From Nitrosospira sp. (lineage in GTDB: Bacteria; Pseudomonadota; Gammaproteobacteria; Burkholderiales; Nitrosomonadaceae), in assembly GCA_043721435.1 (NCBI GenBank), contig JAYSQR010000038.1, positions 7,629 to 71,628 of the forward strand: DNA of 64,000 nt, written 5' to 3'. Below the pieces are notes generated by a model, which saw nothing but the letters and a program-made list of their open reading frames with translations, did not search any database and had not been told where the DNA came from. A program made the position numbers and the translations under genes. Below, one piece after another: positions 22,516 through 53,424 of the stretch (its first letter is position 1; every line of letters starts with the position of its first letter).

Positions 22516-22564
22516 AACGGACAGATTCCAACTCAATCAATATTGATCATTTTCAGGGGAAGTT

Positions 22565-24844: not shown

Positions 24845-24853
24845 GATATTGCC

Positions 24854-27800
24854 ATGCACGCAGCCCATGAATCCCTCGATAAACGTGAGCAGATCATCGC
24901 GTCACTGAATCATCTGGATCATGTCCTTCCTGGGCAAGGACCGATTCTTGATTTCGTCCACCACAATACTCTGCATGGTTACCAGCATCTGCCATTCGAG
25001 CAAGCACTGGCGGAATCCGAGGCGCTTACTGGTATTTGCGGCTATCTCCCTGAAGTACAAAACCGGGGATTTTATCAGCGCGGACGGATTAATGACCGGG
25101 ATCTGTTTGCGGCACTCGCACATAACCCGCAGTTGCAGGCTGAGCAAGTCGTCTGTGCAGCGGGCGATTTAACGATTACGCGCAAGGATATTTATCGCAT
25201 CGCCATGTTATTCGACTTGCAAGCCCTCACTGTCAGTCAGTTGAACTGGCAAATAGAAGAGTTGGATGCGCTGGGCACAGTGCAAGCCGATGTGCCTGAA
25301 CAAGTCCGCAGGCGGCTGCTGGAAAACAGCCCTGACCAGAGCAATGCCATCAGGCAGTTGTGGGAAAGTATCTCGGATAAGTTGGGGTTGGAACAGGTTG
25401 CTCTGCATCCGGAGAACATGCTGGATTTATCACTGGATCAGGCCGAAGACTGGCTGGAGAAAATTCACTCCAGTGATCCGGATAGCAGCAGTCTTACGCT
25501 GCATCAGCGCATGCGGCAACAAGCCGCCGCTTCACTGGATGAGTTGCTGGCCCAACTCGGCGACAGCATTACCCTGCGCGGTTTTATCCTGGCATTGAGC
25601 GGGATCGACATTCTCTACTCCGTTCGCCCGCAATTGATACGCATCTGTGCGTCTGCCCTGGACGAAGGCATGGCCGCCTGGCAACTGCCAGAACGCAACC
25701 AGTTGGGTCTTTACGCTGCTTGGCGGGCAACGGCGCAATATGACGCGAATCCGTTTTTGCATGACTTGCCAGATTGGCAGCGGATTGTGGCCGAATCACC
25801 TGAAAATGCGGTCGATGCCATTATCCAGCAACTGACCCAACTGGAGATGCCGCATGATAAATGGGAAGGATATCTGCAGCGACTGGCGCTTGAGTTGCCG
25901 GGTTGGTCTGGAATTATCAACTGGCGGCAACATCACCCGCAATACCATGCCGAGAACGATGCGGCGCCGAAACTAGCGGATTATCTGGCTATCCGGCTGA
26001 TTCTGGACAGACTCTGGCTTGATCAGGCTTGCCGTGAAACCTGGAAAATCGAAGCCAAACTGAGTTCGTTGCAATTCTATTTCAGTAAAAACCTGTCGGA
26101 ATTCATGGTACGCAGGAAACTGTATCAGGGCGGCCTGCCTGAGTATCTGACCCAGCCGGCTGAATCATTGATAAGCCGCGCCGGTTCTGAACGGTATAAA
26201 CAATCCGACTGGCAGCAGCTCGCCGATCTGGTCTGGACCTGGCAGTTCAGTCCGATGGCGGAAACCAACGCCGGAAGCTGCGGCTTTAATTGGGGCTGGC
26301 GTCTGTTCCGTTTATGCCAGCATCTGGGGCTCAACGCCGCATATGTTCAGCAACTGCAGCGAAAAGATTTGCAGCAGATGCTGGCGCTACTGGATGAATT
26401 TACCGCCACTGAGCGCAGCAAGGTCTGGCTTGATGCCTACGAGCATCATTACCGGGAAGATTTTTTTCAGGCATTGCGTGCCAATCGTAATCGCGGCCGC
26501 TGGGCCAGGCGCGATACTCGCCCGGATTCGCAACTCATATTCTGCATAGATGACCGTGAAGAAAGTATTCGTCGTCATCTGGAAGAATTCAATCCCGCCA
26601 TTGAAACATTGGGTGCTGCCGGTTTTTTTGGCGTACCCATGAACTATAAAGGGCTGGATGATAACAGGGTAACGCCGTTATGTCCGATCGTGGTGACCCC
26701 GGCGCATGAGGTTCGGGAAGTGCCACGGGCGGGCAGCGAACAGTCACTGCTCTCGCATAACAACGGCCGTAAGACGTTACAACGGGTTGCCAATCTGCTG
26801 CATCAGGGTTTGCGCCGCAATCTGCTGTTGTCGCAAGCGGTTATCGATGCGGTTGCACCGATTACTCTGGCTGGATTGCTGGCAAAGATACTGTTCCCCA
26901 AACCACAGCAACATCTGCTTGCCGACATAAAGAAGCTGGTCTCGCCTGAAGTTGCGACTCAACTGATGTTTACTTCAATGGATAATGAGACAGTTGCGTC
27001 GCCGGCAAAACCTAAACTGGGTTTCACCGATAATGAACAAGCCGACCGGGTAGCAGGCTTTTTGCGCAATAGCGGTTTGACTTACGGGTTTGCGGAACTG
27101 GTTATTCTGGTAGGGCATGGTTCCATCAGCCAGAATAATCCACATTTGGCTGCTTATGACTGTGGTGCCTGCAGTGGCCGGCATGGCGGACCGAATGCCA
27201 GATTGTTCGCAGCAATGGCCAATCGTCCGGAGATACGCAAGCTGGTGGCAGCGCGCGGCATCAATATTCCGTCTGATACCTGGTTCATCGGCACTGAGCA
27301 CAATACCTGCAATGAAGAATTCATTTGGTATGACCTTTGTGAGGTGCCTGCGGAACGACTACCCGCACTAAAGAAATTGCAACAGGAGATACAACACGGG
27401 CAGCACATGTCCGCACATGAGCGTTGCCGCAGACTGGCTTCCGCGCCGCGCAACCCGACGCCGGAGCAGGCACTGGCACATATAACAGAAAGAGCCACAG
27501 ATTTCTCCCAAGCCCGTCCCGAACTTGGTCATGCGACTAATGCTGCTGCAGTTGTTGGCCGCCGTTCAGTAACACAGGGCGCATTCTTTGATCGCCGTGC
27601 GTTCCTGATTTCTTATGATCCGACGCAAGATCCGGAGGGCAAGATACTGGAAGGAATTCTGCTGGCCGTTGGGCCGGTCGGGGCAGGTATCAATCTGGAA
27701 TATTATTTCTCCACCGTCAATAATGAACGCTTTGGATGCGGTACCAAGGTTCCGCATAACGTCACCGGTTTCTTCGCCGTAATGGAAGGCACCAGCAGTG

Positions 27801-28132
27801 ATTTGCGTACCGGCCTGCCCAGGCAGATGATCGAGATACACGAAGCGGTGCGCCTGCTGATCGTGGTCGAGGCGAAGACTTCAGTGCTCGGGGAAATCTA
27901 TGCGCGTCAAGCAAGTTTGCGCGAACTGATAGCTGGCGGCTGGGTGTTGTTGAGTGCAATAGATCCCGACAACGGTGAAATTTCCTTCTTCGAACGTGGC
28001 GTGGGTTTCGTCCCGTGGCAAGCTGAAGCAGTAGATTTGCCAGTTGTTGAAAAATCGCCGGATTGTTATCGGGATCAGACTCTCCCCGTTGCGCCGGTAT
28101 TGATTAAACAGCCCGAATTTTCGGGGGCCTAA
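24854..28132 (+). CDS. dabA: DUF2309/DabA-like protein (putative vectorial carbonic anhydrase subunit of a DAB-type inorganic-carbon pump)
   Basis: N-terminus LDHVLPGQGPILDFVHHNTLHGYQHLPFEQA is typical of PF10070. Zinc-site pattern FCIDDRE (C564, D566, R568; TGC at 26543) and GHGSISQNNPHLAAYDCGAC (H755 at 27116; C770). Followed after 4 nt by a NuoL-like gene. Confidence 0.85.
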   Translation: MHAAHESLDKREQIIASLNHLDHVLPGQGPILDFVHHNTLHGYQHLPFEQALAESEALTGICGYLPEVQNRGFYQRGRINDRDLFAALAHNPQLQAEQVVCAAGDLTITRKDIYRIAMLFDLQALTVSQLNWQIEELDALGTVQADVPEQVRRRLLENSPDQSNAIRQLWESISDKLGLEQVALHPENMLDLSLDQAEDWLEKIHSSDPDSSSLTLHQRMRQQAAASLDELLAQLGDSITLRGFILALSGIDILYSVRPQLIRICASALDEGMAAWQLPERNQLGLYAAWRATAQYDANPFLHDLPDWQRIVAESPENAVDAIIQQLTQLEMPHDKWEGYLQRLALELPGWSGIINWRQHHPQYHAENDAAPKLADYLAIRLILDRLWLDQACRETWKIEAKLSSLQFYFSKNLSEFMVRRKLYQGGLPEYLTQPAESLISRAGSERYKQSDWQQLADLVWTWQFSPMAETNAGSCGFNWGWRLFRLCQHLGLNAAYVQQLQRKDLQQMLALLDEFTATERSKVWLDAYEHHYREDFFQALRANRNRGRWARRDTRPDSQLIFCIDDREESIRRHLEEFNPAIETLGAAGFFGVPMNYKGLDDNRVTPLCPIVVTPAHEVREVPRAGSEQSLLSHNNGRKTLQRVANLLHQGLRRNLLLSQAVIDAVAPITLAGLLAKILFPKPQQHLLADIKKLVSPEVATQLMFTSMDNETVASPAKPKLGFTDNEQADRVAGFLRNSGLTYGFAELVILVGHGSISQNNPHLAAYDCGACSGRHGGPNARLFAAMANRPEIRKLVAARGINIPSDTWFIGTEHNTCNEEFIWYDLCEVPAERLPALKKLQQEIQHGQHMSAHERCRRLASAPRNPTPEQALAHITERATDFSQARPELGHATNAAAVVGRRSVTQGAFFDRRAFLISYDPTQDPEGKILEGILLAVGPVGAGINLEYYFSTVNNERFGCGTKVPHNVTGFFAVMEGTSSDLRTGLPRQMIEIHEAVRLLIVVEAKTSVLGEIYARQASLRELIAGGWVLLSAIDPDNGEISFFERGVGFVPWQAEAVDLPVVEKSPDCYRDQTLPVAPVLIKQPEFSGA

Positions 28133-28136
28133 GCGG

Positions 28137-29705
28137 ATGGATGCATTGGTCGCATTGATTCCATTGTTACCGCTGGTTGCTGCAGCTGTTATCGGTATAG
28201 GCCATTTGTTTGGCCAGATCAGCGGTGAAAGCGGTGAGCGCACGACAGCAAACATTGCTACCGGAGCTATTACTCTGTCCTGTGTGCTGGCGTTGACCCT
28301 GTTGGGCGCCGATCTGCTGGGTAAAAACACCGGCTCATTCAACGCGGGGCAGTGGCTGCGCAGTGGCACGCTGGGCATACAAGTAAGTTTTATCACCACT
28401 GGTTTCAGTATCATTCTGGCAGCGCTGTTTTCGATACTGCTGATTATTGTCACCCGTTTTTCAATCAACTACATGCACAGAGAAGCGGGATTTCACCGTT
28501 TCTTTTTCATTCTGAGCCTGTTTTCTTCGGCAATGCTGCTGCTGGTGCTGTCGGGTAATGCCATTGGCACTTTCATCGGCTGGGAAATTGCCGGGTTATG
28601 CTCCTACCTGTTGATATCCTATGCCTATGATCGCCCGGTTGCGGCCCTCAATGCAACCCGTGTATTCGTCACCAATCGCATCGGCGATGCCGGGTTCATT
28701 CTGGGAATAGGGGTCAGCTATCTCTATGCCAAGAGCATCGAATGGAGTAGTCTGAATGCGGTGGCAGAACAGTTGACCACCCCTACTGCCACTGTGATCG
28801 CGCTGTGTTTCGCCATAGCAGCTTTTGCAAAATCGGTACAATTACCATTCACCCCCTGGCTGGGACGGGCAATGGAAGGACCGACACCATCGAGTGCGGT
28901 GTTTTACGGCGCGGTCATGGTACATGCCGGGATCTATCTGGTAATTCTGCTGCAGCCCATCTTTGAACGCGCGCCATTTGTCATGGTTCTGCTGGCCGTG
29001 GTGGGACTAAGCACCGCCATCTATAGCTTTGTGGTCGGATTGACTCAAACCGATGTTAAAAGCTCGTTGTGTTTTGCTACATCCGGCCAACTGGGTTTGA
29101 TGTTTCTGGAATGCGGTCTGGGTTTGTGGCAACTGGCCAGCTGGCATCTTTGCGCTCATGCTATTGTTCGTGGCTATCAGGTATTAACCGCACCATCGCT
29201 GATGCACAATGTACTCGGCAATCCGATCAAACCGGTTAGTCGCGATATTGCCGGACTGCGCTGGCTATATACCGCATCGATACAGCGTTTCTGGCTGGAT
29301 CCGATTGCCGATCGGGCGTTAGTAAGACCGGTTCACGGACTCGGGCGCGATCTGGGCTATTTTGATGACCATATCGTCGATCGCATCATGGGTACACCTG
29401 CGCGCGCAGGCCGTGCCATATCGTCACTGGCGCAATTGGAAAAGAGAGTGCTGAGCGCCCAGTCGGAGCATGACCCCAATGAATTCAGTCGTAGCAGTGG
29501 TGTGGCCGGAAAACTGTTCCAATGGACAGCGGACATTTTCAACTGGTTTGAAGATCGCCTGGTATTGCGAGGCATAGGCATAGACGCGATCGACATGGGA
29601 CGCCAGCTCGGATATGCCGCCAATAAATTTGAGAAATTGATACTGAAGCCTCGCTACCTGGTGGTGTTTGTAGCCATAGTGTTACTGCTTGCAGCTGCAA
29701 TCTGA
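28137..29705 (+). CDS. dabB: NuoL/NdhF-type antiporter-like subunit (DabB-like), lacking the long lateral helix
   Basis: GWEIAGLCSYLLISYAYDRPVAALNATRVFVTNRIGDAGF and AKSVQLPFTPWLGRAMEGPTPSSAVFYGAVMVHAGIYL are NuoL signatures. At 522 aa it is shorter than respiratory NuoL. Confidence 0.88.
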   Translation: MDALVALIPLLPLVAAAVIGIGHLFGQISGESGERTTANIATGAITLSCVLALTLLGADLLGKNTGSFNAGQWLRSGTLGIQVSFITTGFSIILAALFSILLIIVTRFSINYMHREAGFHRFFFILSLFSSAMLLLVLSGNAIGTFIGWEIAGLCSYLLISYAYDRPVAALNATRVFVTNRIGDAGFILGIGVSYLYAKSIEWSSLNAVAEQLTTPTATVIALCFAIAAFAKSVQLPFTPWLGRAMEGPTPSSAVFYGAVMVHAGIYLVILLQPIFERAPFVMVLLAVVGLSTAIYSFVVGLTQTDVKSSLCFATSGQLGLMFLECGLGLWQLASWHLCAHAIVRGYQVLTAPSLMHNVLGNPIKPVSRDIAGLRWLYTASIQRFWLDPIADRALVRPVHGLGRDLGYFDDHIVDRIMGTPARAGRAISSLAQLEKRVLSAQSEHDPNEFSRSSGVAGKLFQWTADIFNWFEDRLVLRGIGIDAIDMGRQLGYAANKFEKLILKPRYLVVFVAIVLLLAAAI

Positions 29706-29712
29706 GGGACTG

Positions 29713-31302
29713 ATGGCAATTACTCCTGTTATCCCCTGGTCAGAATCAGCAGCGTTTCCGTTGCTGACTATGCTGACGCTTATCCCGTTGACGACGCTGG
29801 TCGCTGTTCTGTTGTCACGTTCATCGTCGGTGGCATTGCGTATCGGTTTTGCCGGAACACTTTCGACGCTATTGCTCAGCTTCTACCTGCTGAGCGTTTT
29901 CGATGCTGATCGTCCTGGTATTCAACTGGCCGAAGAGATGCACAATCTGGGTTTTACCTACAGCGTGGGTGTTGACGGTGCCAATATACTGTTTATTCCA
30001 CTGACGGCCATTTTTACACTGCTGGCCTTGATTTATACCTCAATCACCCGGCATGCCACTGATCGGGTATACATTGCCTGTTTGCTGGGTTATGAGGCTA
30101 TCCTGATTGGTGCGTTCTCGGCGATGAATCTGATGCAGTTCTGGCTATGGTGTGTGCTGGAACTGATCCCGGTGGTGCTGCTGACGATTCGTGCCGGCAC
30201 CGGGCAAAACCGGCGCTGGGTCGTCTCACTTTTGCTGCAGCACTGGCTGAGCGGATTGTTGATGACCCTGGCAGGTTTCATGTTGCTCGCCTTTGGCTTA
30301 ATGAATGTAGTACCTGACGCCGAACTGACTTTTGACTGGCTGAAATTGAAAGAAGTCAGTAATGCGCAGTTACAGTATGGGTCACTGATCTTCTTTCTCC
30401 TGTTTTTTGGTTTTGCCATCCGCATGCCGATATTCCCGTTTCACGGCTGGCTGCCGGTATTGGCGGAACAAGGCACCGTCGCGAGCGTGGCCATTTTCCT
30501 GGGGGGCCTGAAACTGGGGGTTTACGGAGCCATTCGTTTTATCCTGCCGCTGATTCCGGAGGCCGCCGAACAATGGTCCGGATTTGTGCTGACACTGGGT
30601 TTAATCAGTATCGTTTACGGCGCGTTGCTGGCGCTGATGCAAATCAATATTCGCCGTTTGCTGGCCTTTGCCGTAGTCAGCCATACAGGCATGCTGGTCA
30701 TCGGCATTTTTGATTTCAACAAATACGGCATGGAAGGCACTATCCTGTTATCCGTTGCTTATGGCCTTGCAACTGCGGGCATGTTTTTCAGTGTCGGTTT
30801 GATTTATGAGTGGACTCGTACTGCTATTATTCCGCGCCTGGGCGGGCTGTTTGATGCCAATATCACCATCGCATTCCTGTTCGTGATCTCTGCACTGACT
30901 ACCATGGTCATGCCCGGCACCCCAGGGTTTGACGGCGCGCATCTGCTGATCGAGGGTACTGCCTCAAGATACGGTTGGCTGGTCGTTACTGCGATATTGC
31001 TGGGCAACCTCCTGGCTGCCGGTCTGCTGCTGCGTGCTTTTCAGCAGATGTTTGTTGCCGCGCCGAAACGATTTCTGCAACCCCACAGCAGTGCTCATAA
31101 ACCCGCCAAGAAGGAACAGGTTATTGCAGTGGTAATTTGCTCATTATTGATCGGTACGGGTTTTTACACGACACCCTGGGTGCATGTGATAGACCAGAAC
31201 GTAGTGGCCTCCATGAACGAGCTGGAGGCCTCCCTGCATCATGGTACACAACAGTCTGGCACGGTGACTGTGCCTGTCGGGGTTAAAGGCGGGCATAAAT
31301 GA
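29713..31302 (+). CDS. divergent NuoM-type antiporter-like subunit (copy 2) with a hydrophilic C-terminal tail
   Basis: GFAIRMPIFPFHGWLPVLAEQGTVASVAIFLGGLKLGVYG aligns to the NuoM TM7/TM8 region. The TM5 motif is altered (QFWLWCVLELIP). I prefer the ATG at 29713, preceded by GAGGGA; the ORF-track start at 29689 overlaps dabB. Confidence 0.82.
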   Translation: MAITPVIPWSESAAFPLLTMLTLIPLTTLVAVLLSRSSSVALRIGFAGTLSTLLLSFYLLSVFDADRPGIQLAEEMHNLGFTYSVGVDGANILFIPLTAIFTLLALIYTSITRHATDRVYIACLLGYEAILIGAFSAMNLMQFWLWCVLELIPVVLLTIRAGTGQNRRWVVSLLLQHWLSGLLMTLAGFMLLAFGLMNVVPDAELTFDWLKLKEVSNAQLQYGSLIFFLLFFGFAIRMPIFPFHGWLPVLAEQGTVASVAIFLGGLKLGVYGAIRFILPLIPEAAEQWSGFVLTLGLISIVYGALLALMQINIRRLLAFAVVSHTGMLVIGIFDFNKYGMEGTILLSVAYGLATAGMFFSVGLIYEWTRTAIIPRLGGLFDANITIAFLFVISALTTMVMPGTPGFDGAHLLIEGTASRYGWLVVTAILLGNLLAAGLLLRAFQQMFVAAPKRFLQPHSSAHKPAKKEQVIAVVICSLLIGTGFYTTPWVHVIDQNVVASMNELEASLHHGTQQSGTVTVPVGVKGGHK

Positions 31303-32804
31303 GTGAAGCTGGTTTCCCGCTGCTGAGCCTAGCCATTCTGTTGCCGCTGCTCGGTGCTCTTGCAGTCGGGATCACCCGCGACATAAAGCTGGCCAAGGGG
31401 ATTGCGCTGGCAATCGCCGGTTGCGAACTGTTGCTGACGCTGCTGATAGTGCAGTCGTTCAACGCCGGTAGCGGCAGTTTCCAACTGGTCGAAAAGTATC
31501 CCTGGATACCGTTCCTGAATATCGATTATCTGGTCGGTGTTGATGGCATCTCAGTATTGTTCCTGCCAATGTCAGCGTTATTGACGCTGACAACGATCAT
31601 TGCTTCGTGGAATTCGATACAGCATAACCCCCGCTTTCATTTTGCGTTATTGCTGGCATTGGAAGGAATCACCATCGGGGTGTTTACTTCACTGGATACG
31701 GTGTTGTTCTTTTTGTTCTGGGAACTGACGCTGCCGCCATTCTTCTTTTTAATCGGTTTATGGGGCATCGGTTCGCAACGCCGTGGTGCGGCAATGAAAT
31801 ACACGCTGTTTATGTTGTTTGGCGGGGTGCCGCTATTGCTTGCTTTCATCATACTGGCGATTAATCATGCCACTGTGGCGGGTGGAGTCATTCCCCATGC
31901 GCTCTCCTTCAGTTTGCCGGTCCTGCTGGAAACGCCCTTGCCAGATAATTTACAGATACTGGTTTTCTTGTTGCTACTGCTTGGCTTCGGTGTCAAAGCA
32001 CCTCTGGTTCCCTTTCATACCTGGTTGCCGACTGCCGCAATGGAAGGTCCGGTACACGTAACGGCGATACTGACCGGTCTGAAGCTGGGCGCTTACGGTA
32101 TCTTGCGTTTTGCCATGCCATTAGCCCCTGCTGCGGCTGTCGAATACAGTTGGATACTGGGCATTCTGGGTACGGTTACGCTTATATATGGTGCGCTGAT
32201 TGCTTTGCAACAGACTAATCTGCGCCGTCTGCTGGCTTACGCCAGTATCAGCCACGTCGGTCTGGTCGTGGTTGGTATCGCGTCCTTGAATATACAGGGT
32301 CTGCAGGGTGCGGTTTTTCAATTGCTCAACTTCTCTTTGGTGGCCAGTTCACTGATACTGATTGTCGGCATGATTCAACACCGCCTGGGCAGTACCGAGA
32401 TTATCCATTTGGGTGGCTTGGCCAAAGTGATGCCACGGCTGACCTGTTTCTACTTCCTGTTTACCCTGGCGAGTATCGGGGTACCGGGAACCAACGGGTT
32501 TCCCGCTGAACTGATGTTGATTATCGGTGCATTGAAAGCCCACTCCAGTCTGGGAGTTGCCGCGCTGGTCGGCGCAGTCCTCGGTGCTGCATACATGCTG
32601 TCCTATATCCGCCGTGCCTTTTTTGGTCCGATCACGCAATCCGTTGTCAGTCAGGCGCAGGATTTATACCCGCGAGAACTGGCTCTGTTATGTGTTCCTG
32701 CCTTGCTGGTTCTGGTGTTTGGGTTTTTCCCGGACAGTGTGCTGCATATCAATCAAATGGCGTCGGAAGTATGGTTGTCGCGGATACTTAATCCAGCTCC
32801 TTAG
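31299..32804 (+). CDS. NuoM/NdhD-type antiporter-like subunit (copy 3)
   Basis: FFLFWELTLPPFFFLIGLWG and GFGVKAPLVPFHTWLPTAAMEGPVHVTAILTGLKLGAYG. ATGA overlap with the preceding gene. Confidence 0.9.
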   Translation: MSEAGFPLLSLAILLPLLGALAVGITRDIKLAKGIALAIAGCELLLTLLIVQSFNAGSGSFQLVEKYPWIPFLNIDYLVGVDGISVLFLPMSALLTLTTIIASWNSIQHNPRFHFALLLALEGITIGVFTSLDTVLFFLFWELTLPPFFFLIGLWGIGSQRRGAAMKYTLFMLFGGVPLLLAFIILAINHATVAGGVIPHALSFSLPVLLETPLPDNLQILVFLLLLLGFGVKAPLVPFHTWLPTAAMEGPVHVTAILTGLKLGAYGILRFAMPLAPAAAVEYSWILGILGTVTLIYGALIALQQTNLRRLLAYASISHVGLVVVGIASLNIQGLQGAVFQLLNFSLVASSLILIVGMIQHRLGSTEIIHLGGLAKVMPRLTCFYFLFTLASIGVPGTNGFPAELMLIIGALKAHSSLGVAALVGAVLGAAYMLSYIRRAFFGPITQSVVSQAQDLYPRELALLCVPALLVLVFGFFPDSVLHINQMASEVWLSRILNPAP

Positions 32805-32896
32805 GGCGTAACCGTCAGTAGCCTTTTTGTCCCACAGCTCTTTTCTTTTGGGTTCTACATTCGTTATAATATTGTAACTAACATGGAGATAACCGT

Positions 32897-33967
32897 ATGA
32901 ATACCGGAACTGATTACCTGCTTGATTTGAATGCACGCCACTCGCGGGCTTTTATTGATTTGGCCATGGAGCGCCGCAGATACCGGGGCGAACATCCCAC
33001 TGAAATAGCGGCGCTTAAATGCATGGATGGCAGGCTTAACCTGTCGGTCATGACACGAACCGCAGTCGGGATCATTCAACCTTTTCGCAATCTGGGTGGC
33101 AAGTTTGATCTGGGCTGGCCCTTCTTCCAGGCAACTCTGGATCAATGGGCGCAGTACTCCATCGGCCGCGGCAGGTGCTGCCTGATCTTTGTGACCTATC
33201 ATTTTGCGCGCGGGGATACTCATCGTGGTTGCAGGGGATTCAATTACGATACCAATGCTGCCAGAGACACGGCTATAAAACTCAAGAATCAGTTTGAGCG
33301 TATTTATGGCAAGGGTGCCGTGGTGCCCATTGTGTGCGGGATTGAGACTGACCTTGATGCCTTGATCCTGCACGGCGAAGATGGTCGTGTTGTTGATCTG
33401 GCCGAAGTAAAGGAAGACTTATCCGGACTCGAATTGGAAGGTTTGCTGCGTTCGCTGTACCCCTCAATGCCGGAACGGATTCTCAAGGATATGATCCCGC
33501 TGGTTGAAGGAAACATCAAACACTCCCGAAAGATCCGCGCTTCCAACAGGCCGATCGAGGATGCCGAACACAAGGAATGGGTCTTGGGAGTGGGGCGCGG
33601 CTTTGACTGGCTGCATGCCATCAATACGGCTTTCATCGTCGGGCCGTTCGATCCGAATCTTTCTGATGCGATTGGAACTGCGGCCACACTGCTGAAAGGC
33701 AATATTGACGACGGCCGGGTTAACCCAAGCGGTATTGTGCTCATGACTTCGGCTGCTTACAGAGAAATTGGCCCCGAACGTGAACTGGCTAAAGAGAAAG
33801 CAAGATTCCTGAGCAAATTTGCGCTCGATGTTATCAAGGCCAAGGTTCCGGATCTGGTGCCTCACCTGAACATACTCACTGGATTCACTGATTTAAACAC
33901 TAGAAAATTCGAAGTGCTGGAGCGTCTGGACAAGGTTTCCAACCCGGTGGCTTACAAAGTCGCTTAG
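32897..33967 (+). CDS. uncharacterised 356-aa protein with beta-carbonic-anhydrase-like motifs
   Basis: KCMDGRLN (C42-x-D44-x-R46; TGC at 33020), GIIQPFRNLGG (compare GxxFVxRNxxN of beta-CAs), and THRGCRG (H109-x-x-C112; CAT at 33221). About 150 aa of unrecognised C-terminal region. Own SD (GGAGA) and a TATAAT box in the 92-nt upstream spacer. Confidence 0.6.
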   Translation: MNTGTDYLLDLNARHSRAFIDLAMERRRYRGEHPTEIAALKCMDGRLNLSVMTRTAVGIIQPFRNLGGKFDLGWPFFQATLDQWAQYSIGRGRCCLIFVTYHFARGDTHRGCRGFNYDTNAARDTAIKLKNQFERIYGKGAVVPIVCGIETDLDALILHGEDGRVVDLAEVKEDLSGLELEGLLRSLYPSMPERILKDMIPLVEGNIKHSRKIRASNRPIEDAEHKEWVLGVGRGFDWLHAINTAFIVGPFDPNLSDAIGTAATLLKGNIDDGRVNPSGIVLMTSAAYREIGPERELAKEKARFLSKFALDVIKAKVPDLVPHLNILTGFTDLNTRKFEVLERLDKVSNPVAYKVA

Positions 33968-34159
33968 TAGGCACCGCTTTTTTGTTTCGTTCACGCCAGA
34001 TTCGCGCCGCATCGCGGCATAGGCTGAATTCCTATCCGCCGTGAGCAAGCCATCGCAGCAAAAATAGATGGTTGCAGATTGCCCACTTGACGGCGGAGGT
34101 TACGTCATCTATGAAATTAACAGGAAGCGTTCAATTCAGAATTATTTCCGGAGGAAGCC

Positions 34160-34477
34160 ATGAATAACTCAATACCAATGAAACGATTCGAGATTGTTGT
34201 TGATGAAGAAAGGCTCAACGAGTTGATCGCGTTGCTGGGATCAACCGGTGTGCGTGGCTACACTTTCATCAAGCATACGGGCGGCCTCGGCTCGCGCGGC
34301 GAACGGCGTCCAGATGGCCTCTTTTTACAGGAAGAAAATGCCATGGTGATTCTCGCCTGCCAGGAAGAGCAGGCGCAGAAAGTGGTCGCGGCGCTACGTC
34401 CCAAGTTGAAGGAATTCGGCGGCATGTGCCTGATTTCGGACTGCCTCTGGGTTCAAGGACCTGCAGTTTCATATTAA
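34160..34477 (+). CDS. sbtB: SbtB-type PII-like signalling protein (copy 2)
   Basis: 105 aa, 97/105 residues identical to the product of 22565-22882. Strong SD GGAGGA 6 nt upstream. Confidence 0.8.
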   Translation: MNNSIPMKRFEIVVDEERLNELIALLGSTGVRGYTFIKHTGGLGSRGERRPDGLFLQEENAMVILACQEEQAQKVVAALRPKLKEFGGMCLISDCLWVQGPAVSY

Positions 34478-34730: not shown

Positions 34731-37280
34731 GTGAATTTCACGAGATCAAAAGACTCGCCGTGGTGGGCGCGCAGTGTCGAAGAGACAGCCCAGGATATCG
34801 GCGCATCGATTAATGGCCTTAGCACGGCCGAGGCGACTGAGCGGCTTAAACATTTTGGTGCCAACGCACTCGAGGATAATGGTGCACCTAGCGTTGTTTC
34901 CTTACTGTTGCGACAGTTTGGCTCTCCCATTGTCCTGATCTTGATTGTCGCAGCGATTCTGTCGTTCGCGGTGCACGACCCGAGCGATGGGTTCATCATT
35001 CTCTTTATCGTTGCCGCCAGCGGTTTGCTGGGTTTCTGGCAGGAATTCCGTGCCGCGACGGTCGTCGCCAGCTTGCAGGAAATGGTCGAACTAAGTGCCA
35101 TGGTCATGCGCGATGGTGCGGCAACCAGCGTACCGCGGGATGAGGTGGTGCCAGGTGATGTTGTTCTCCTTTCCGCAGGTTCTGGCGTACCTGCAGATTG
35201 CCGCTTGTTGGAATTACGTGATCTGTTCGTCAACGAGGCGACCCTGACTGGAGAGACATTCCCGGTCGAGAAGATTGCGGCTGATTTGCCGGCAGACACG
35301 CCGCTGGCACACCGCACCAATGCGCTGTTCCAGGGCACCCATGTGGTCAGTGGGAATGGCCGGGCTCTGGTCATACGAACGGGCCGCAACACGGAGTTTG
35401 GTGCGATTGCACAGCAGTTACGGACTCGGCCGGAGGAATCTGATTTCGAGCGCGGAGTGCGTCAATTTGGCACACTGCTGATCCGGCTGACGTTGATCCT
35501 CGTGATCCTGATCTTTGCCTTCAACGTCCTGTTGCAGCGGCCGGTCCTCGATTCGTTCCTGTTCGCGCTGGCGCTCGCTGTCGGCCTGACCCCAGAATTG
35601 CTGCCGGCGATCATCAGCGTAAATCTGGCCAGTGGGGCTCGCCGGATGGCTGCCAAGAAAGTCATCGTTAAACGACTCGTTTCGATCGAGAACTTTGGCA
35701 GCATGGACGTGCTGTGCTCGGACAAGACGGGCACGCTTACAGAAGGCAAGGTCAGCCTGGAAGGCGCGCTGGATGCAGAAGGGAATCCAAGCGAGCGTAC
35801 GCTACGGCTGGCAGCAATCAATGCGGCATTCCAAACTGGATTTAACAACCCGATTGACGATGCCATCACGGTGGGGGCCGATCACGGGACTTTCGGCGCA
35901 GTGCGTCTTGACGAGATACCGTACGATTTCACACGCAAACGTCTGAGTGTGCTGGCGGCCATTGATGGACAAGCCGTACTCGTGACCAAGGGAGCGCTGT
36001 CACAGATGATCGATGCGTGTGTTACGGTGCAACTGGCCGACGGCCGAATTGTTCCCATTATGGGGCAGGAGCAGGCGATCCTTGAGCGCTATGCCGCGTT
36101 TAGTGCACGCGGGCTGCGCACGCTTGGAATTGCGGCAAAGTCATTGCCGGGGCGCTCCGCCGCCGGGCGAGAAGACGAGACAAATCTCACGTTTGTCGGC
36201 TTTTTGCTATTCGCGGATCCACCGAAAGCAGGGATTGCGGCAACGATCCTGGAGCTGCAAGGTCTTGGCATCGCGCTCAAGGTGATTACCGGGGACAATC
36301 AGTTGGTGGCGCGAGAAGTAGCCAGGCAGATCGGCCTGGTTGATGCGCGTATCGTGAGCGGGCAGGAACTGCGACAGGTAAGCGACGAGGCGCTGCCACA
36401 GTTGGCGCGGATGACAGACATTTTTGCCGAGGTTGAGCCGAACCAAAAAGAGCGCATCATCCGTGCACTCCGCAAGGCAGGCCACGTGGTTGGCTACCTG
36501 GGCGATGGCATCAACGATGCTCCAGCGCTGCACGCTGCGGACGTTGGCTTATCGGTTCAAGGCGCCGCAGATGTAGCGAAGGAAGCCGCCGACATCGTGT
36601 TGCTCGAGCCGGATCTCGCCGTGCTTGCTGCCGGTGTGCGTGCGGGCCGTGCAACCTTTGCGAATACCATGAAATACGTTTTCATGGCCACGAGCGCAAA
36701 CTTCGGCAACATGTTCAGCATGGCCGGCGCATCGCTTTTCCTGCCTTTTCTGCCGCTGCTGCCAAAGCAGATCCTGCTCACTAATTTGATGACTGACTTG
36801 CCGGAAATGGCCATCGCCACGGATCAGGTAGATACCGAATCGGTCGAGCAGCCCCAGCGCTGGGATATGGAATTCATCCGCGACTTCATGCTCAAGTTCG
36901 GGTTGCTCAGTTCTGTTTTCGACTTCCTCACATTTGGAGTGTTGTTCTTCATCCTGGAAGCCTCTCCCGAGCTATTTCGCAGCGGCTGGTTCGTCGAATC
37001 TGTCGTGTCGGCTGCGCTGGTTGTGCTCGTCATTCGAACTCGCGGGCCATTCTGGAGGAGCAGGCCGTCCACGGCACTGACGCTGGCGACGCTGACTGTA
37101 GCCGCTGCCGCAGTCGCGCTCCCGTATACGCCGCTTGGCAACCTGTTTGGCTTTGTGCCGCTTCCGCCCCTTTTTCTCGGACTCATGGGGCTGATTGTGC
37201 TGGGGTACATCGGCTCAGCCGAAATCCTGAAGCAAACGTTCTACCGGCAGTACGAAAAAGGGAGTCGGGCTGCGGCCTAG
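34731..37280 (+). CDS. mgtA: P-type ATPase, MgtA-like magnesium-translocating type
   Basis: TGE-type motif (ATLTGETFPVEK), phosphorylation site CSDKTGTLTEG, hinge GDGINDAPAL, and GWFVESVVS...LVIRT, which is typical of MgtA-type C-terminal TMs. GTG start with AGGTGAGGA upstream. Confidence 0.85.
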   Translation: MNFTRSKDSPWWARSVEETAQDIGASINGLSTAEATERLKHFGANALEDNGAPSVVSLLLRQFGSPIVLILIVAAILSFAVHDPSDGFIILFIVAASGLLGFWQEFRAATVVASLQEMVELSAMVMRDGAATSVPRDEVVPGDVVLLSAGSGVPADCRLLELRDLFVNEATLTGETFPVEKIAADLPADTPLAHRTNALFQGTHVVSGNGRALVIRTGRNTEFGAIAQQLRTRPEESDFERGVRQFGTLLIRLTLILVILIFAFNVLLQRPVLDSFLFALALAVGLTPELLPAIISVNLASGARRMAAKKVIVKRLVSIENFGSMDVLCSDKTGTLTEGKVSLEGALDAEGNPSERTLRLAAINAAFQTGFNNPIDDAITVGADHGTFGAVRLDEIPYDFTRKRLSVLAAIDGQAVLVTKGALSQMIDACVTVQLADGRIVPIMGQEQAILERYAAFSARGLRTLGIAAKSLPGRSAAGREDETNLTFVGFLLFADPPKAGIAATILELQGLGIALKVITGDNQLVAREVARQIGLVDARIVSGQELRQVSDEALPQLARMTDIFAEVEPNQKERIIRALRKAGHVVGYLGDGINDAPALHAADVGLSVQGAADVAKEAADIVLLEPDLAVLAAGVRAGRATFANTMKYVFMATSANFGNMFSMAGASLFLPFLPLLPKQILLTNLMTDLPEMAIATDQVDTESVEQPQRWDMEFIRDFMLKFGLLSSVFDFLTFGVLFFILEASPELFRSGWFVESVVSAALVVLVIRTRGPFWRSRPSTALTLATLTVAAAAVALPYTPLGNLFGFVPLPPLFLGLMGLIVLGYIGSAEILKQTFYRQYEKGSRAAA

Positions 37281-40627: not shown

Positions 40628-43183
40628 ATGTCCTCCGGCACTGTATTCAACCTCGCAGTCAATCCAAAAATCCCCCACCGGCTGGTCCGCCTGGAGGAGT
40701 TAGCCAACAATCTCTGGTACAGTTGGGATCGCTCAACGCGCTCGCTGTTTTCCCGTTTGCATCCCGGTTTATGGGGGGCAGTGGGGCATAATCCCAAGGC
40801 TTTTCTTAAACGCGTGGACGAATCCCTGCTATTGGAAGCCGCAGAGGATCAGGTATTTCTCGCCAATTACAACAGCATTTTATCGTCCTACGATTCTTAT
40901 CATTCCGAACCGTTACGGCATAACGGCGCCGAAGGTCTGCGTCCGCATGACCAGGTAGCGTACTTCTGTTTCGAGTTTGGTTTTCACGAGAGCTTTCCGA
41001 TTTATTCCGGTGGCCTTGGCATCCTGGCTGGCGACCACTGCAAGGCGGCGAGCGATCTGCGCCTGCCGTTTGTCGGTGTCGGCCTGCTCTATCGTCAGGG
41101 CTATTTCTTCCAGACTATCGATAACCAGGGTAACCAGCAGGTCACCTACACCGATTCGGATTTCGAGGACTTGCCAGCGGCACCGGTACTGCATGCAGAT
41201 GGCTCGGAGGTGCGGGTCGAAGTGGAATTGCCGCAGCGCAAGGTGGTGATAAAAGTATGGCAAGCGCAGGTGGGCCATGTGACGCTGTATCTGCTGGATA
41301 CCGATTTGCCGGAGAATTCCTCGCAGGACCGAGACATTACCCATCAGCTCTATGGTGGCGACAAAGCCATGCGTATCGAGCAGGAAATCATACTCGGTGT
41401 CGGTGGCGTGCGCGCATTGCAGGCGGTGGGCAGGCGGCCGACGGTGTGGCACATCAACGAAGGTCATGCGGCATTCATGATGCTGGAACGCATGCGCAAT
41501 CTGGTGCAGCAGGGTCTGGATTTCGCCAGCGCACTGGAAGCGGTGGCAGTGAACACGGTGTTCACCACCCATACCGCAGTACCGGCGGGGCATGACCATT
41601 TCAACGCAGACATGATGCAGACATATTTCGAGGGATTCTACCGTGATCTCGGCATCGCTCGCGAAGAGTTCATGGCACTGGGCCGCGTTCCCGACGGTCC
41701 GGATTTCAACATGACCGCGCTCGCCATCCGCAGTTCGCGCTCGCATAACGGTGTGAGCAGGATCCACGGTCATGTGTCGGCGCGCATTTGCCAGGATTTG
41801 TGGCCGCAGATCGAGCCGGAAGAGAATCCAATGGGGTATATCACCAACGGCGTGCATGTGCCGACGTTCCTGGCGCAGGAATGGTCCGATCTGTTCGACC
41901 GCCATCTCGGCCATGAGTGGCGCAACAAACTGTGCGACGCCGAGTATTGGTCGCGCATCGAGACGATACCCGACCACCAGTTCTGGAGCGTGCGGCAATC
42001 GCTGAAATCACAAATGCTTTATGGCGTACGTTCCCACCTCGCCGTACAGAATTCCCGTAACCATGGTTCTGAGGCGCATCTCGACCGATTGCTCAAGCTC
42101 ACCGATCCGATTAATCCGAATATCCTGACCATCGGTTTTGCCCGCCGTTTCGCCACTTATAAACGCGCCACGCTGCTATTCGAGAATCTCGACTGGCTGC
42201 GTAAAATCATCCTTGACCAGGAACGCCCGGTATTGTTTATTTTTGCCGGCAAGGCGCACCCAGCGGATATTCCCGGACAGGATTTGATCCGGCGTATCAG
42301 CCAGGTCGCACGCCTGCCGGAATTTGAAGGGCGGCTGCTGTTGATCGCGGGCTATGATCTGCGGCTTGCGCGGCGGTTGGTGGCGGGGGTGGATGTGTGG
42401 CTCAATAACCCGGTGTACCCGTTGGAAGCAAGCGGCACTTCCGGGATGAAAGCGGGCATCAACGGGACGATTAACCTGAGCGTGCTCGATGGCTGGTGGG
42501 GAGAAGGCTACGATGGCAAGAATGGCTGGGCCATCAAGCCGGGACCGGAGGATATGCCGCCCACGCTGCGCGACCAGGAAGAGAGCCAGACTCTCTACGA
42601 AATCCTGCAGGATCGGGTGGTGCCGCTCTATTATCATCGCGACAAGCTCGGTTACTCGCCCGAGTGGGTGAGAATGGCCAAGCATTCGATGATGTCATTG
42701 CTGCCGCGCTACAATGCCACGCGCATGCTGGGCGAGTACCTGAACAACTTCTATCTGCCGGCGAGCAACCAGGGTGCGCTCTATACCGAGAATGGCTTTG
42801 ATGGCGCCAGAAAAGTTGCCGCCTGGAAAACCCATGTGAGAAATGCATGGGGTGGAGTGACGCTGCGTCGGCTGGATACCCCATGCAAGCGCATCAGTTT
42901 TGGTGATGTCGTACATTTCAGTATCGCCGCAAGACTGAACGGCCTGCAGCCCGAGGATGTGGTGGCGGAACTGTTGGTTTGCCGTCAGTTCAAGGGCAGC
43001 AAGCCATGCGATTTCAAGCACTTCAGGTTCGAAGCCAGCGGTGTCGAGGAATCGGGCGAGCATCTGTTTGAACTGAATCTCGCTCCGGAACTATGCGGCA
43101 GGCTGGAATATTACATCCGTATTTATCCATATCAGCCGCTGCTGACACATCCGCTGGAAATGGGCCTGATGGCATGGCTGTAG
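40628..43183 (+). CDS. glgP: alpha-glucan phosphorylase (GT35, GlgP family with DUF3417 N-terminus)
   Basis: NLWYSWD N-terminal domain, GGLGILAGDH, and the PLP-lysine region EASGTSGMKAGINGTINLSVLDGWW. Confidence 0.92.
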   Translation: MSSGTVFNLAVNPKIPHRLVRLEELANNLWYSWDRSTRSLFSRLHPGLWGAVGHNPKAFLKRVDESLLLEAAEDQVFLANYNSILSSYDSYHSEPLRHNGAEGLRPHDQVAYFCFEFGFHESFPIYSGGLGILAGDHCKAASDLRLPFVGVGLLYRQGYFFQTIDNQGNQQVTYTDSDFEDLPAAPVLHADGSEVRVEVELPQRKVVIKVWQAQVGHVTLYLLDTDLPENSSQDRDITHQLYGGDKAMRIEQEIILGVGGVRALQAVGRRPTVWHINEGHAAFMMLERMRNLVQQGLDFASALEAVAVNTVFTTHTAVPAGHDHFNADMMQTYFEGFYRDLGIAREEFMALGRVPDGPDFNMTALAIRSSRSHNGVSRIHGHVSARICQDLWPQIEPEENPMGYITNGVHVPTFLAQEWSDLFDRHLGHEWRNKLCDAEYWSRIETIPDHQFWSVRQSLKSQMLYGVRSHLAVQNSRNHGSEAHLDRLLKLTDPINPNILTIGFARRFATYKRATLLFENLDWLRKIILDQERPVLFIFAGKAHPADIPGQDLIRRISQVARLPEFEGRLLLIAGYDLRLARRLVAGVDVWLNNPVYPLEASGTSGMKAGINGTINLSVLDGWWGEGYDGKNGWAIKPGPEDMPPTLRDQEESQTLYEILQDRVVPLYYHRDKLGYSPEWVRMAKHSMMSLLPRYNATRMLGEYLNNFYLPASNQGALYTENGFDGARKVAAWKTHVRNAWGGVTLRRLDTPCKRISFGDVVHFSIAARLNGLQPEDVVAELLVCRQFKGSKPCDFKHFRFEASGVEESGEHLFELNLAPELCGRLEYYIRIYPYQPLLTHPLEMGLMAWL

Positions 43184-43229
43184 GGTGATGCTGGGGAGTA
43201 GTGAGTGGAAAGTAGGGAGTGGGGAGGCA

Positions 43230-44762: not shown

Positions 44763-44802
44763 GGAGTGAATTGGTATGTTTAGCTTATCTGTCGCTCTGT
44801 TG

Positions 44803-46437: not shown

Positions 46438-46473
46438 GTTGCTTTGTTCCTGATTGTGGAAAATTTTAGGGTT

Positions 46474-53420: not shown

Positions 53421-53424
53421 TCTG

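Follow-up and report, generated by a model that had tools for sequence, protein, structure and literature searches.

A predicted short, non-carboxysomal CsoSCA-type beta-carbonic anhydrase at the end of a DAB operon in Nitrosospira and related ammonia-oxidising bacteria

Introduction

What does a gene for a soluble carbonic anhydrase (CA)-like protein do directly behind the genes of an inorganic-carbon (Ci) pump? The question is raised by a 64,000-nucleotide stretch of Nitrosospira DNA (the window, meaning the whole stretch analysed), for which a first-pass annotation made from the letters alone had singled out a 356-residue protein as unrecognised and unlike any known CA. It noted three motifs resembling those of the beta-CA zinc site, suggested an accessory component or CO2/bicarbonate sensor of the pump, and found a free cytoplasmic CA puzzling at such a place, as it would normally short-circuit a carbon-concentrating pump. 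The RuBisCO used by ammonia oxidisers for carbon fixation is non-encapsulated, and the Ci acquisition of these bacteria is poorly described. Our literature search found no paper that connects Nitrosomonas or Nitrosospira with DabA or DUF2309, and nothing relevant on CsoSCA in Patescibacteria or on a "carboxysome shell carbonic anhydrase" of Nitrosomonas; the N. briensis genome paper mentions neither carboxysomes nor CA. Here we report what homology, a predicted fold, conserved residues and gene order in other genomes indicate about this gene and its product (the CA gene and CA protein).

The CA gene and its neighbours

The reading frame is a real, conserved gene for which 1675 homologues were retrieved, and its ATG, Shine-Dalgarno sequence, TATAAT box and 92-nt separation from the last NuoM-like gene, all described in the first-pass annotation, were verified in the sequence (Table 1). 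The TATAAT box is coupled to a poor -35 element, so an independent CA promoter is unproven; a promoter scan 5' of the reading frame found no sigma-70-like site meeting its criteria. At the other end of the gene folding revealed a terminator-like hairpin that is locally clear, with a z-score over the whole 76-nt stretch that is not significant, and which a consensus terminator scan missed owing to its length and interrupted stem. This hairpin likely marks the end of a DAB-CA transcription unit, in which the CA gene would be co-transcribed with the DAB genes.

Table 1. Features of the CA locus, with positions in the window
Feature	Position	Strand	Evidence
SbtA-like bicarbonate transporter, upstream of the DAB operon	21562-22515	+	PF05982, E 8.6e-111
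Second PII-like gene, paired with the SbtA-like gene	22565-22882	+	PII paralogue
SbtA-like/PII-like pair, just 5' of the DAB operon	21562-22882	+
Five-gene enlarged DAB-type operon, 5' of the CA gene	23372-32804	+	Pfam PF10070 (E 2e-251), PF00361, PF00662
NuoM-like, first gene of the DAB operon	23372-24844	+	Pfam
DabA, 1092 aa	24854-28132	+	PF10070, E 2e-251
NuoL-like	28137-29705	+	Pfam
NuoM-like, second of three	29689-31302	+	Pfam
NuoM-like, third, directly 5' of the CA gene	31299-32804	+	Pfam
TATAAT, 5' of the CA gene	32865-32870		Sequence reading
Shine-Dalgarno GGAG, 8 nt 5' of the ATG	32885-32888	+	Direct sequence reading
Predicted short "non-cso" CsoSCA-type beta-CA, 356 aa, ATG start	32897-33967	+	ORF call, homologues, profile, AF2, Foldseek
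Codons C42-M-D44-G-R46: predicted first zinc-ligand Cys and Asp-Arg dyad	33020-33034	+	Invariant 48/48; align with H. neapolitanus CsoSCA C173-A-D175-G-R177 (C42=C173, D44=D175, R46=R177)
Codons H102 (33200-33202) to C112 (33230-33232): predicted zinc-ligand His and second Cys	33200-33232	+	Both invariant; align with CsoSCA H242 and C253
H109 codon, non-ligand, between H102 and C112	33221-33223	+	His in 29/48
H225 codon, counterpart of CsoSCA His397	33569-33571	+	Invariant 48/48; alignment with H397
Terminator-like hairpin, interrupted 13-bp stem, overlapping the CA stop codon, then UUUUUUGUUU	33945-33987	+	Folding
Promoter-like site before the downstream PII-like gene	34117-34145		Promoter scan
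PII-like gene 3' of the CA gene	34160-34477	+	PF00543, E 1.6e-12

The PII gene that had been noted downstream was confirmed by its Pfam match, and among the related loci it follows the CA gene only in a Nitrosospira/Nitrosovibrio sub-clade. Its coding sequence is mostly identical in DNA to that of the PII-like gene paired with the SbtA-like gene, with flanks that are not alignable; the 86% column identity of the pair refers to the whole 483-column alignment, flanks included. The CA gene itself is not a fragment or duplicate of dabA, as the CA protein had no PF10070 match, matched the DabA of the window by BLASTP only at E 0.75, and showed no relation in an hhalign profile-profile comparison with 21 DabA sequences (probability 0.1).

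Family assignment and predicted fold

Searched as a single sequence, the CA protein matched Pfam PF20686 (CsoSCA_cat) exactly at the gathering score (21.5 bits, E 1.8e-4) and the full-length equivalog model TIGR02701 weakly, with 25.4 bits against a cut-off of 241. A phmmer search of the PDB also gave a match to CsoSCA, and a profile built from 48 family members placed CsoSCA chains (E 1.5e-17 to 7e-17) above the classical beta-CAs. The AF2 model (pLDDT 94.9, pTM 0.91) is compact and globular, with no membrane or docking features; its Foldseek matches were headed by five CsoSCA structures (E 3e-16 to 2.5e-15, TMq 0.68-0.73; 8thm, 9g4t and 2fgy among the top matches), followed by the two-domain Porphyridium CA and then classical beta-CAs. 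The model divides into a catalytic domain (approximately residues 1-225) and a degenerate C-terminal pseudo-domain (approximately 226-356), with residues 1-35, which form two short helices, alone preceding the first catalytic strand. On sequence and model we therefore class the CA protein as a beta-carbonic anhydrase of the CsoSCA lineage. The beta-CA relationship suspected at first pass is thus upheld by both profile and predicted fold, and the label "unrecognised" can be dropped, the more so as some RefSeq orthologues already carry the name [quoted passage not shown].

Active-site residues

The three motifs lie where the first-pass annotation had placed them (K41-C42-M-D44-G-R46, G58IIQPFRNLGG68 and T108-H109-R-G-C112), and their conservation in 48 diverse homologues (29-81% identity) is far above chance: C42, D44, R46, H102, C112 and H225 are invariant, as are G67 and G111, and R64 is kept in 46 of the 48. 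Three of the four residues proposed at first pass as the metal site thus held up (C42, D44 and C112). The fourth, H109, read as the His of an HxxC zinc motif, is His in just 29 of the homologues and is therefore not a zinc ligand; we rejected it, whereas H102, found in the context Y-H102-F, is invariant and aligns with H242 of CsoSCA. With C42, H102 and C112 as the predicted ligands the spacing is Cys-60-His-10-Cys rather than that of an HxxC motif, similar to the spacing of 69 and 11 in CsoSCA, which also contains a "THSGC" motif whose His is likewise not a ligand. The Cys-His-Cys ligand order of beta-CAs is therefore present on a predicted beta-CA alpha/beta fold, together with the Asp-Arg dyad of the CxDxR motif (D44 and R46). 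H225 corresponds to His397 of CsoSCA, which a preprint (10.64898/2026.04.02.716132) describes as critical for catalysis and regulation, and to which a second preprint (10.64898/2026.05.01.722082) also assigns a role. A complete predicted zinc site with its dyad in a soluble beta-CA-like protein is thus supported, and the protein would be expected to bind zinc and to be catalytically active.

The Cys-His-Cys zinc site and Asp-Arg dyad also occur in carbonyl sulfide and CS2 hydrolases, and we considered whether the CA protein could be a beta-CA-fold enzyme acting on such a substrate. The profile weakly matched a COS hydrolase (3vqj, E 0.006) and a CS2 hydrolase (3ten, E 0.02), and the hosts include sulfur oxidisers such as Thiobacillus. 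These matches, however, were limited to about 35 residues of the shared CxDxR region, while CsoSCA, a true CA, matched over the whole fold and at least 12 orders of magnitude better. The His397 equivalent is invariant, and the gene lies among genes for Ci transporters and RuBisCO rather than sulfur genes; we consider a different substrate very improbable.

Comparison with carboxysomal CsoSCA and the non-cso group

Carboxysomal CsoSCAs (H. neapolitanus 2FGY and 9G4T; Cyanobium 8THM) share with the CA protein the catalytic fold, the degenerate C-terminal domain, ligands and dyad in register, and a type-I open site. The CA protein is about 160 residues shorter and only ~18-21% identical to them, and it lacks the N-terminal domain, the structural-zinc hook and the Rubisco-binding peptide/tail; HMM alignments start at the catalytic Cys of CsoSCA, and the N-terminal hook domain has been reported as exclusive to cso-associated sequences (Pulsford et al. 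2024, PMC11086599). Also absent is the vicinal-cysteine redox switch (C283/C284 in H. neapolitanus; preprint 10.64898/2026.04.02.716132) found in about 80% of CsoSCA orthologues: its cysteines align with G138 and K139, at positions variable in the family. The C94-C95 pair of the CA protein, tried as an alternative switch, was rejected as unconserved in the 48 homologues. As the C283A/C284A variant of the H. neapolitanus enzyme is inactive (same preprint), absence of the pair is by itself no proof of constitutive activity. Of the RuBP-binding residues of Cyanobium CsoSCA (R266, K469 and R560), R266 falls in a region of ambiguous alignment with the CA protein, and the HMM alignments end short of the C-terminal domain.

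Could the CA protein be a genuine carboxysomal CsoSCA that is merely encoded apart from its cso operon? The nearest solved structures are carboxysomal, and database names on some homologues say as much. Against this, the TIGR02701 score is far below the cut-off, and no N-terminal domain, Rubisco-binding tail or redox cysteine pair is present, from which it follows that the CA protein should not be carboxysome cargo. No RuBisCO or carboxysome (cso) genes were found among the window ORFs scanned (roughly 13-55 kb), and the 79 related loci that we examined yielded no cso genes; the RuBisCO genes of Nitrosomonas Is79 are unassociated with carboxysome genes (PMC3764937). We give this explanation next to no credence; this genome would presumably lack carboxysomes.

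The features of the CA protein instead agree throughout with those of the "non-cso" cluster of orphan CsoSCA homologues (Pulsford et al. 2024, Sci Adv, PMC11086599; e.g., UniProt A0A080M7C6): a length of ~350 residues, a single predicted zinc site in each pseudo-dimer, absence of the N-terminal "hook", a location outside cso operons, and models that fit CsoSCA above other beta-CAs. The published dataset includes a Nitrosomonas sp. Is79A3 orthologue of the CA protein. Judged by sequence and model, the CA protein therefore belongs to this known group, described by bioinformatics in 2024, and the annotations "hypothetical protein" and "carboxysome shell carbonic anhydrase" would be better replaced by "non-carboxysomal CsoSCA-like beta-CA". 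The 2024 study gives the neighbours of non-cso genes only as "NAD or [Fe-Ni] hydrogenases or permeases", with no mention of DAB/DabA, cbbLSQO, SulP or ATP-synthase synteny.

Synteny in other lineages

The 79 related loci came from a search built on 12 closer homologue sequences. In the Nitrosomonadaceae-type clade a NuoL/M-like gene lies directly upstream on the same strand in 22 of 25 loci, and in 21 of these 22 the DabA operon is visible; Nitrosospira, Nitrosovibrio and Nitrosomonas clusters share this order, with 70-95% protein identity and short intergenic gaps. The CA gene is thus consistently the last gene of the enlarged DAB operon in ammonia-oxidising bacteria. Outside this clade DAB linkage was limited to one Thiobacillus locus, where cbbR is followed by a divergent cbbL-cbbS-cbbQ-cbbO series, a 98-aa ORF and, last, the CA gene, which overlaps that ORF by 1 nt; DabA is there on the opposite strand to the CA gene. 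At an N. communis locus the cbb operon is convergent with the DAB-CA operon. A SulP permease gene stands immediately 5' of the CA homologue in Nitrospira and a SulP gene just 3' of the CA gene in cluster-6a Nitrosomonas. The proposed link to Ci genes is therefore borne out by several kinds of neighbour (DabA, cbbLSQO, SulP and, in the window, the SbtA-like gene), and the expected co-occurrence with PF10070 holds for the 21 Nitrosomonadaceae-type loci but not for most of the family, which has no DabA nearby.

For the majority of homologues, both in CPR bacteria and outside them, no Ci genes lie within 10 kb, so that the general role of the family may be housekeeping. On such a reading the enzyme would supply bicarbonate and buffer pH, and its position in the DAB operon would reflect gene history, possibly with a CPR-like source. 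Twelve of the 44 loci lacking nearby Ci genes, often from CPR bacteria, sit directly behind an F1Fo ATP synthase operon; a neighbour-joining tree nests the Nitrosomonadaceae clade among CPR sequences; the DAB operon is missing from two loci of the Nitrosomonadaceae-type clade whose CA is full-length (L010 and L013); and in the model of Flamholz et al. (PMC9894237) CA is beneficial chiefly through the supply of bicarbonate and not through CO2 pumping. The "Saccharibacteria" label of L013 and of L080 is doubtful because their flanks encode SurA-like and SpoT-like proteins, and we set it aside as evidence of recent transfer to CPR bacteria. A purely housekeeping role in the ammonia oxidisers nonetheless seems unlikely to us, given the order conserved over three genera, the independent Ci links in Thiobacillus (cbbLSQO) and Nitrospira (SulP), and a terminator-like hairpin that comes after the CA gene rather than before it.

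The pump subunit or sensor suggested at first pass would make the CA protein an attached part of an enlarged DAB complex, adding a second module for catalysis or regulation in which the degenerate C-terminal domain might bind a ligand. Its terminal position in the operon is conserved, and published DAB1 has three subunits against five here, so that extra partners are conceivable. Cyanobium CsoSCA binds its allosteric activator RuBP near the defunct C-terminal site, and cryptic regulatory roles of this domain in non-cso isoforms were raised by the same authors (PMC11086599). Yet the family is widespread without DAB, as in CPR bacteria and Nitrospira, the CA protein is unrelated to DabA in sequence or profile, its model shows no features for docking or membrane attachment, and the invariance of every catalytic residue points to an enzyme and not a sensor; we regard such a role as quite improbable. 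Taken as a whole, the first-pass observations of the ORF, motifs and PII neighbour survive, as does the idea of a soluble beta-CA-like protein linked to Ci genes; its unlikeness to any known CA, the H109 ligand and the subunit or sensor role are not supported.

Proposed function

We think it probable that the product is a cytosolic, short non-cso CsoSCA-type CA which brings bicarbonate supplied by pumping into equilibrium for a non-carboxysomal RuBisCO. One polypeptide would form a cytoplasmic type-I beta-CA pseudo-dimer, its N-terminal half carrying the single zinc site (C42, H102, C112 and water) with H225, and a D44-R46 dyad that would keep the site open, its C-terminal half being a degenerate copy without metal ligands. 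The pumps (DAB and, here, the adjoining SbtA-like transporter) would build a cytosolic bicarbonate pool, which the CA would rapidly equilibrate with CO2, so providing CO2 to RuBisCO and HCO3- to bicarbonate-dependent carboxylases; CO2 that would otherwise leak could be re-hydrated by the membrane DAB, the whole acting as a carboxysome-free Ci-acquisition module. Such a direction of net flux through DAB and CA is presumed. By our own reasoning, if the CO2 hydrated by DabA is merely that which has entered the cytoplasm by diffusion, DAB plus CA alone cannot lift cytosolic CO2 above that outside.

The short-circuit puzzle is weaker than it first appeared, both because the form IA RuBisCO operon of Nitrosomonas Is79 (cluster 6a) is unassociated with carboxysome genes (PMC3764937) and because DAB2 with a cytosolic CA supported rubisco-dependent growth of E. 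coli in ambient air with no carboxysome (Flamholz et al. 2022, PMC9894237). In the model of that study CA reduces the required rate of Ci uptake, and the DAB2 plus CA state was proposed as an evolutionary intermediate towards CCMs. A wider and decidedly speculative scheme, which we would not expect to hold in full, is that carboxysome-less ammonia oxidisers run a natural carboxysome-free Ci module of five-subunit DAB, SbtA or SulP importers, free CsoSCA-type CA and cytosolic RuBisCO, that the non-cso enzymes stand for the ancestral state of CsoSCA before carboxysomes, and that the CA may be gated either by the PII proteins encoded nearby or through its own degenerate C-terminal domain. If so, gating would keep the CA from simply dissipating the work of the pump, and these bacteria would embody to this day a stage that has been proposed in the evolution of CCMs, "CA plus transporter before carboxysome". 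The operon offers a concrete system in which to study whether a pump and a cytosolic CA cooperate or compete, what non-cso CsoSCA enzymes do, and how the carboxysomal CA arose.

Comparison with known systems

SulP transporters paired or fused with classical beta-CA domains exist, and the Nitrospira and cluster-6a Nitrosomonas loci resemble such pairs; in the window, by contrast, the CA neighbours are DAB and an SbtA-like gene. DabA (PF10070), the vectorial CA subunit of DAB pumps, is like the CA protein a divergent beta-CA, here encoded in the same operon, and its closest solved structure is reported to be CsoSCA (preprint 10.64898/2026.05.01.722082). It is, however, three times as long, docks on membrane subunits and has Leu at the CsoSCA H397 site, where the CA protein keeps His (H225). 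The closest functional parallel to the module proposed here may be the engineered rubisco-dependent E. coli of Flamholz et al. (PMC9894237), in which an energised DAB pump (DAB2), a free cytosolic beta-CA (Can) and non-encapsulated RuBisCO are combined. That combination was built artificially with a classical beta-CA, whereas the ammonia oxidisers have a natural, conserved operon with a CsoSCA-type CA and a five-subunit DAB, which would make it the natural counterpart of the engineered, carboxysome-free state that allows growth in air.

Identity of the 356-residue protein

The 356-residue protein encoded behind the genes of the DAB CO2-uptake pump had been noted in the first-pass annotation for three beta-carbonic anhydrase (beta-CA) motifs in a protein that resembled no recognized CA. 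The ORF, with GGAG and TATAAT upstream, and the motifs were found as described; the lack of resemblance did not hold, as Pfam, a family profile and Foldseek all identified the carboxysomal carbonic anhydrase CsoSCA. The sole Pfam match was to CsoSCA_cat (PF20686, residues 95-162, E-value 1.8e-4) at 21.5 bits, exactly the gathering score, and the score against NCBIfam TIGR02701 (carboxysome shell CA) was 25 bits versus a cut-off of 241. A phmmer search of PDB sequences returned CsoSCA chains only (E-values 2e-4 to 3e-3). There were 1675 matches in a 90%-clustered database and 463 clusters of 50%-identity representatives (213 at E <1e-30), nearly all members being ~350 residues long. A profile built from 48 members (29–81% identity to the query) matched CsoSCA structures with E-values of 1.5e-17 to 7e-17, classical beta-CAs following at 1e-5 and weaker. 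The annotation had proposed an HMM search and a structure prediction as checks, and the latter agreed with the former: an AlphaFold2 model from the 48-sequence alignment was very confident (mean pLDDT 94.9, pTM 0.91), and its best five Foldseek matches in the PDB were to CsoSCA of Cyanobium (8THM) and H. neapolitanus (9G4T and 2FGY; E-values 3e-16 to 2.5e-15, query-normalized TM 0.68-0.73), ahead of a two-domain Porphyridium beta-CA and ordinary beta-CAs.

Ten alignment columns were invariant among the 48 sequences: C42, D44, R46, G67, H102, G111, C112, T151, H225 and G233. HMM alignment, with H. neapolitanus numbering corrected for the 28-residue tag carried by chain 2fgy_A, paired C42-M-D44-G-R46 with C173-A-D175-G-R177, Y-H102-F with Y-H242-F, G-C112 with G-C253, and H225 with H397. 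In H. neapolitanus CsoSCA, C173, H242 and C253 are the zinc ligands and D175 and R177 the Asp-Arg dyad; H397 is reported as critical for catalysis in two preprints (10.64898/2026.04.02.716132, 10.64898/2026.05.01.722082). The annotated Cys-x-Asp-x-Arg motif and C112 were thus borne out, C42, D44, R46 and C112 all being invariant, while the proposed zinc-binding H109 was variable (His in only 29 of 48 homologs) and matched the non-ligand His of the CsoSCA 'THSGC' motif. Beyond residue 225 the alignment held no conserved Cys or His besides H225 itself, which fits a second domain that would be degenerate, as in CsoSCA. We consider it highly probable that the protein is a non-carboxysomal CsoSCA-type CA; that it is instead a COS or CS2 hydrolase seems very improbable.

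Pulsford et al. (2024) described an 'orphan cluster' of shorter, uncharacterized 'non-cso' CsoSCA homologs, encoded outside cso operons, with one predicted zinc site per pseudo-dimer and no hook insertion (PMC11086599). Since the Nitrosomonas sp. Is79A3 ortholog is present in that dataset (PMC11086599) and some RefSeq orthologs are named 'carboxysome shell carbonic anhydrase domain-containing protein', our protein belongs to a known, so far uncharacterized group.

Gene neighborhoods

The window locus is an inorganic carbon (Ci) island in the order two-component system, SbtA-like transporter, PII-like gene, DAB operon, CA gene, second PII-like gene (the one annotated after the CA gene) and P-type ATPase. 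The DAB operon comprises NuoM-like, 1092-residue DabA, NuoL-like, NuoM-like and NuoM-like genes, an order kept across Nitrosomonadaceae loci, and its last gene lies 92 nt from the CA gene. No sigma-70-like site ahead of the CA ORF passed our promoter scan, so a promoter of its own is a candidate only; the hairpin and U-run at the CA stop codon and the promoter-like site before the PII gene suggest that the CA gene is the last of the DAB transcription unit. Neighboring DabA and the CA protein had no profile similarity, and we think it improbable that the latter docks on the DAB complex as a subunit or acts as its sensor. The two PII-like paralogs bracketing the DAB-CA block have mostly identical coding DNA and flanks that cannot be aligned; the first follows the SbtA-like gene, resembling an SbtA-SbtB pair. 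Housekeeping functions occupy the stretch scanned from ~38.6 to 55.4 kb, joined from 40.6 kb by a glycogen-metabolism cluster unrelated to the CA finding (phosphorylase-like, starch/glycogen synthase, PGI, branching enzyme, ADP-glucose pyrophosphorylase-like and two GH57 enzymes, with a thiolase gene inside).

Features of the window and of related loci (L-numbers)
Feature	Locus	Position	Strand	Basis or remark
Two-component system	window	19502-21440		
SbtA-like transporter	window	21562-22515		PF05982, E 9e-111
First PII-like gene, 105 aa	window	22565-22882		
DAB operon, five genes	window	23372-32804		
TATAAT	window	32865-32870	+	upstream of CA ORF
GGAG	window	32885-32888	+	upstream of CA ORF
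CA gene, 356 aa	window	32897-33967	+	ORF call
Hairpin, then U-run	window	33945-33987	+	folding; overlaps CA stop codon
Promoter-like site	window	34117-34145	+	promoter scan; ahead of PII gene
Second PII-like gene, 105 aa	window	34160-34477		
P-type ATPase	window	34731-37280		
Glycogen-metabolism cluster	window	40628-55446		
~95-aa acidic ORF	L016	11283-11573		equivalents in L009, L018, L019, L020
RuBisCO operon with CA	L076	3368-11023		Thiobacillus MAG
'CSDGD ... HTPCG' protein, ~200 aa	L027; L044; L046; L051	28-657; 11063-11683; 11119-11922; 11098-11748		
Paired CA copies	L014; L039	9848-12254; 9941-12213		tandem
Paired CA copies	L024	1083-3429	opposite	
CA copy, 'Candidatus Saccharibacteria'	L013/L080	10001-11077		

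In a synteny survey of 79 related genome loci, the Nitrosomonadaceae-type clade (70–95% identity; Nitrosospira, Nitrosovibrio, N. oligotropha, N. communis and MAGs) had small gaps between the CA gene and the gene before it, which was NuoL/M-like and on the same strand in 22 of 25 loci (all except L010, L013 and the fragmented L053). The full NuoM-DabA-NuoL-NuoM-NuoM series was seen in 21 of these 22, the flank of the other being too short. A PII gene 3' of the CA gene was confined to the Nitrosospira/Nitrosovibrio sub-clade; cluster-6a Nitrosomonas had in its place a SulP permease (PF00916), a putative bicarbonate importer, with a conserved ~95-residue acidic ORF lacking Pfam matches in between. 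Four Nitrospira loci had a SulP permease immediately 5' of the CA homolog. In a Thiobacillus MAG (L076) the CA gene ends a non-carboxysomal RuBisCO operon (cbbL-cbbS-cbbQ-cbbO and a 98-residue ORF, which the CA start overlaps by 1 nt), with a divergent LysR gene upstream and a DabA operon a few kb off on the opposite strand; such a location favors an enzyme working for RuBisCO. An N. communis locus (L029) has a cbbS-cbbQ-cbbO cluster convergent with its DAB-CA operon, and the ~100-residue ORF after its cbbO belongs to the same ORF cluster as the Thiobacillus 98-residue ORF; we presume that these may be the small cbbN gene.

Near the CA homologs of CPR/Patescibacteria-like loci we found no Ci genes, so the Ci linkage proposed in the annotation held through DabA, RuBisCO or SulP genes in Nitrosomonadaceae, Thiobacillus and Nitrospira and failed here. 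In 12 of the 44 such loci with enough flank the homolog lay directly 3' of an F1Fo ATP synthase operon (complete operons were upstream in L023, L025, L031, L033, L034, L039, L043, L044, L052, L054, L055, L066 and L081). A housekeeping CA, with a merely historical DAB linkage, is to our minds unlikely, though the least so of the alternatives. Four CPR loci have, beside the CA gene, an ORF for a ~200-residue protein with 'CSDGD ... HTPCG' motifs and no Pfam match, which may be a single-domain beta-CA-like paralog. Adjacent CA copies occur downstream of the DAB operon in one Nitrosomonas MAG, and two CPR-like loci also have such a pair. A rough neighbor-joining tree with a midpoint root placed the Nitrosomonadaceae clade among CPR sequences, away from the Thiobacillus/Nitrospira clade. 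A copy on a 594-kb contig labeled 'Candidatus Saccharibacteria' shares 80% identity with the query, nests within the Nitrosomonas clade and lacks a DAB operon; its SurA-like, SpoT-like, Fur and Zip neighbors indicate either an unreliable taxon label or a recent transfer.

Proposed role and comparison with known systems

The protein combines a predicted CsoSCA-type beta-CA fold and a complete set of invariant catalytic residues with a conserved slot behind the DAB pump. As a soluble cytosolic CA, it would equilibrate a bicarbonate pool built by DAB plus SbtA or SulP, supplying CO2 to non-encapsulated RuBisCO and bicarbonate to other carboxylases, and leaking CO2 would be recaptured by DAB. The annotation had objected that a cytosolic CA would short-circuit the pump. 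This objection is softened, as Nitrosomonas Is79 has a form IA RuBisCO not associated with carboxysome genes (PMC3764937) and rubisco-dependent E. coli grows in ambient air with DAB2 and a cytosolic CA (Flamholz et al., 2022; PMC9894237). In the model of that study, moderate CA lowers the needed uptake rate and most of the benefit comes from bicarbonate supply, not CO2 pumping (PMC9894237). We lean toward the full statement, a non-carboxysomal CsoSCA-type CA with a role in Ci acquisition; the first-pass observation is partly confirmed and its interpretation partly supported. Ammonia oxidizers with the conserved DAB-CA operon probably lack carboxysomes, and in the literature searched such an operon appears undescribed; it is open to experiment.

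The window operon is an enlarged variant of DAB1, which is published as a heterotrimer of DabA with one NuoL-like and one NuoM-like subunit, whereas here there are three NuoM-like genes. A true carboxysomal CA is hardly credible: the window ORFs scanned (roughly 13-55 kb) included no RuBisCO or carboxysome genes. Carboxysomal CsoSCA has an N-terminal domain, a 'hook' and a disordered Rubisco-binding tail, all three absent from our protein, whose model has just two short helices (residues 4-32) before the first catalytic strand. The query C94-C95 pair is not conserved among homologs. The vicinal C283/C284, the redox switch of H. neapolitanus CsoSCA (10.64898/2026.04.02.716132), align with G138-K139 in our protein, positions that vary across its family.
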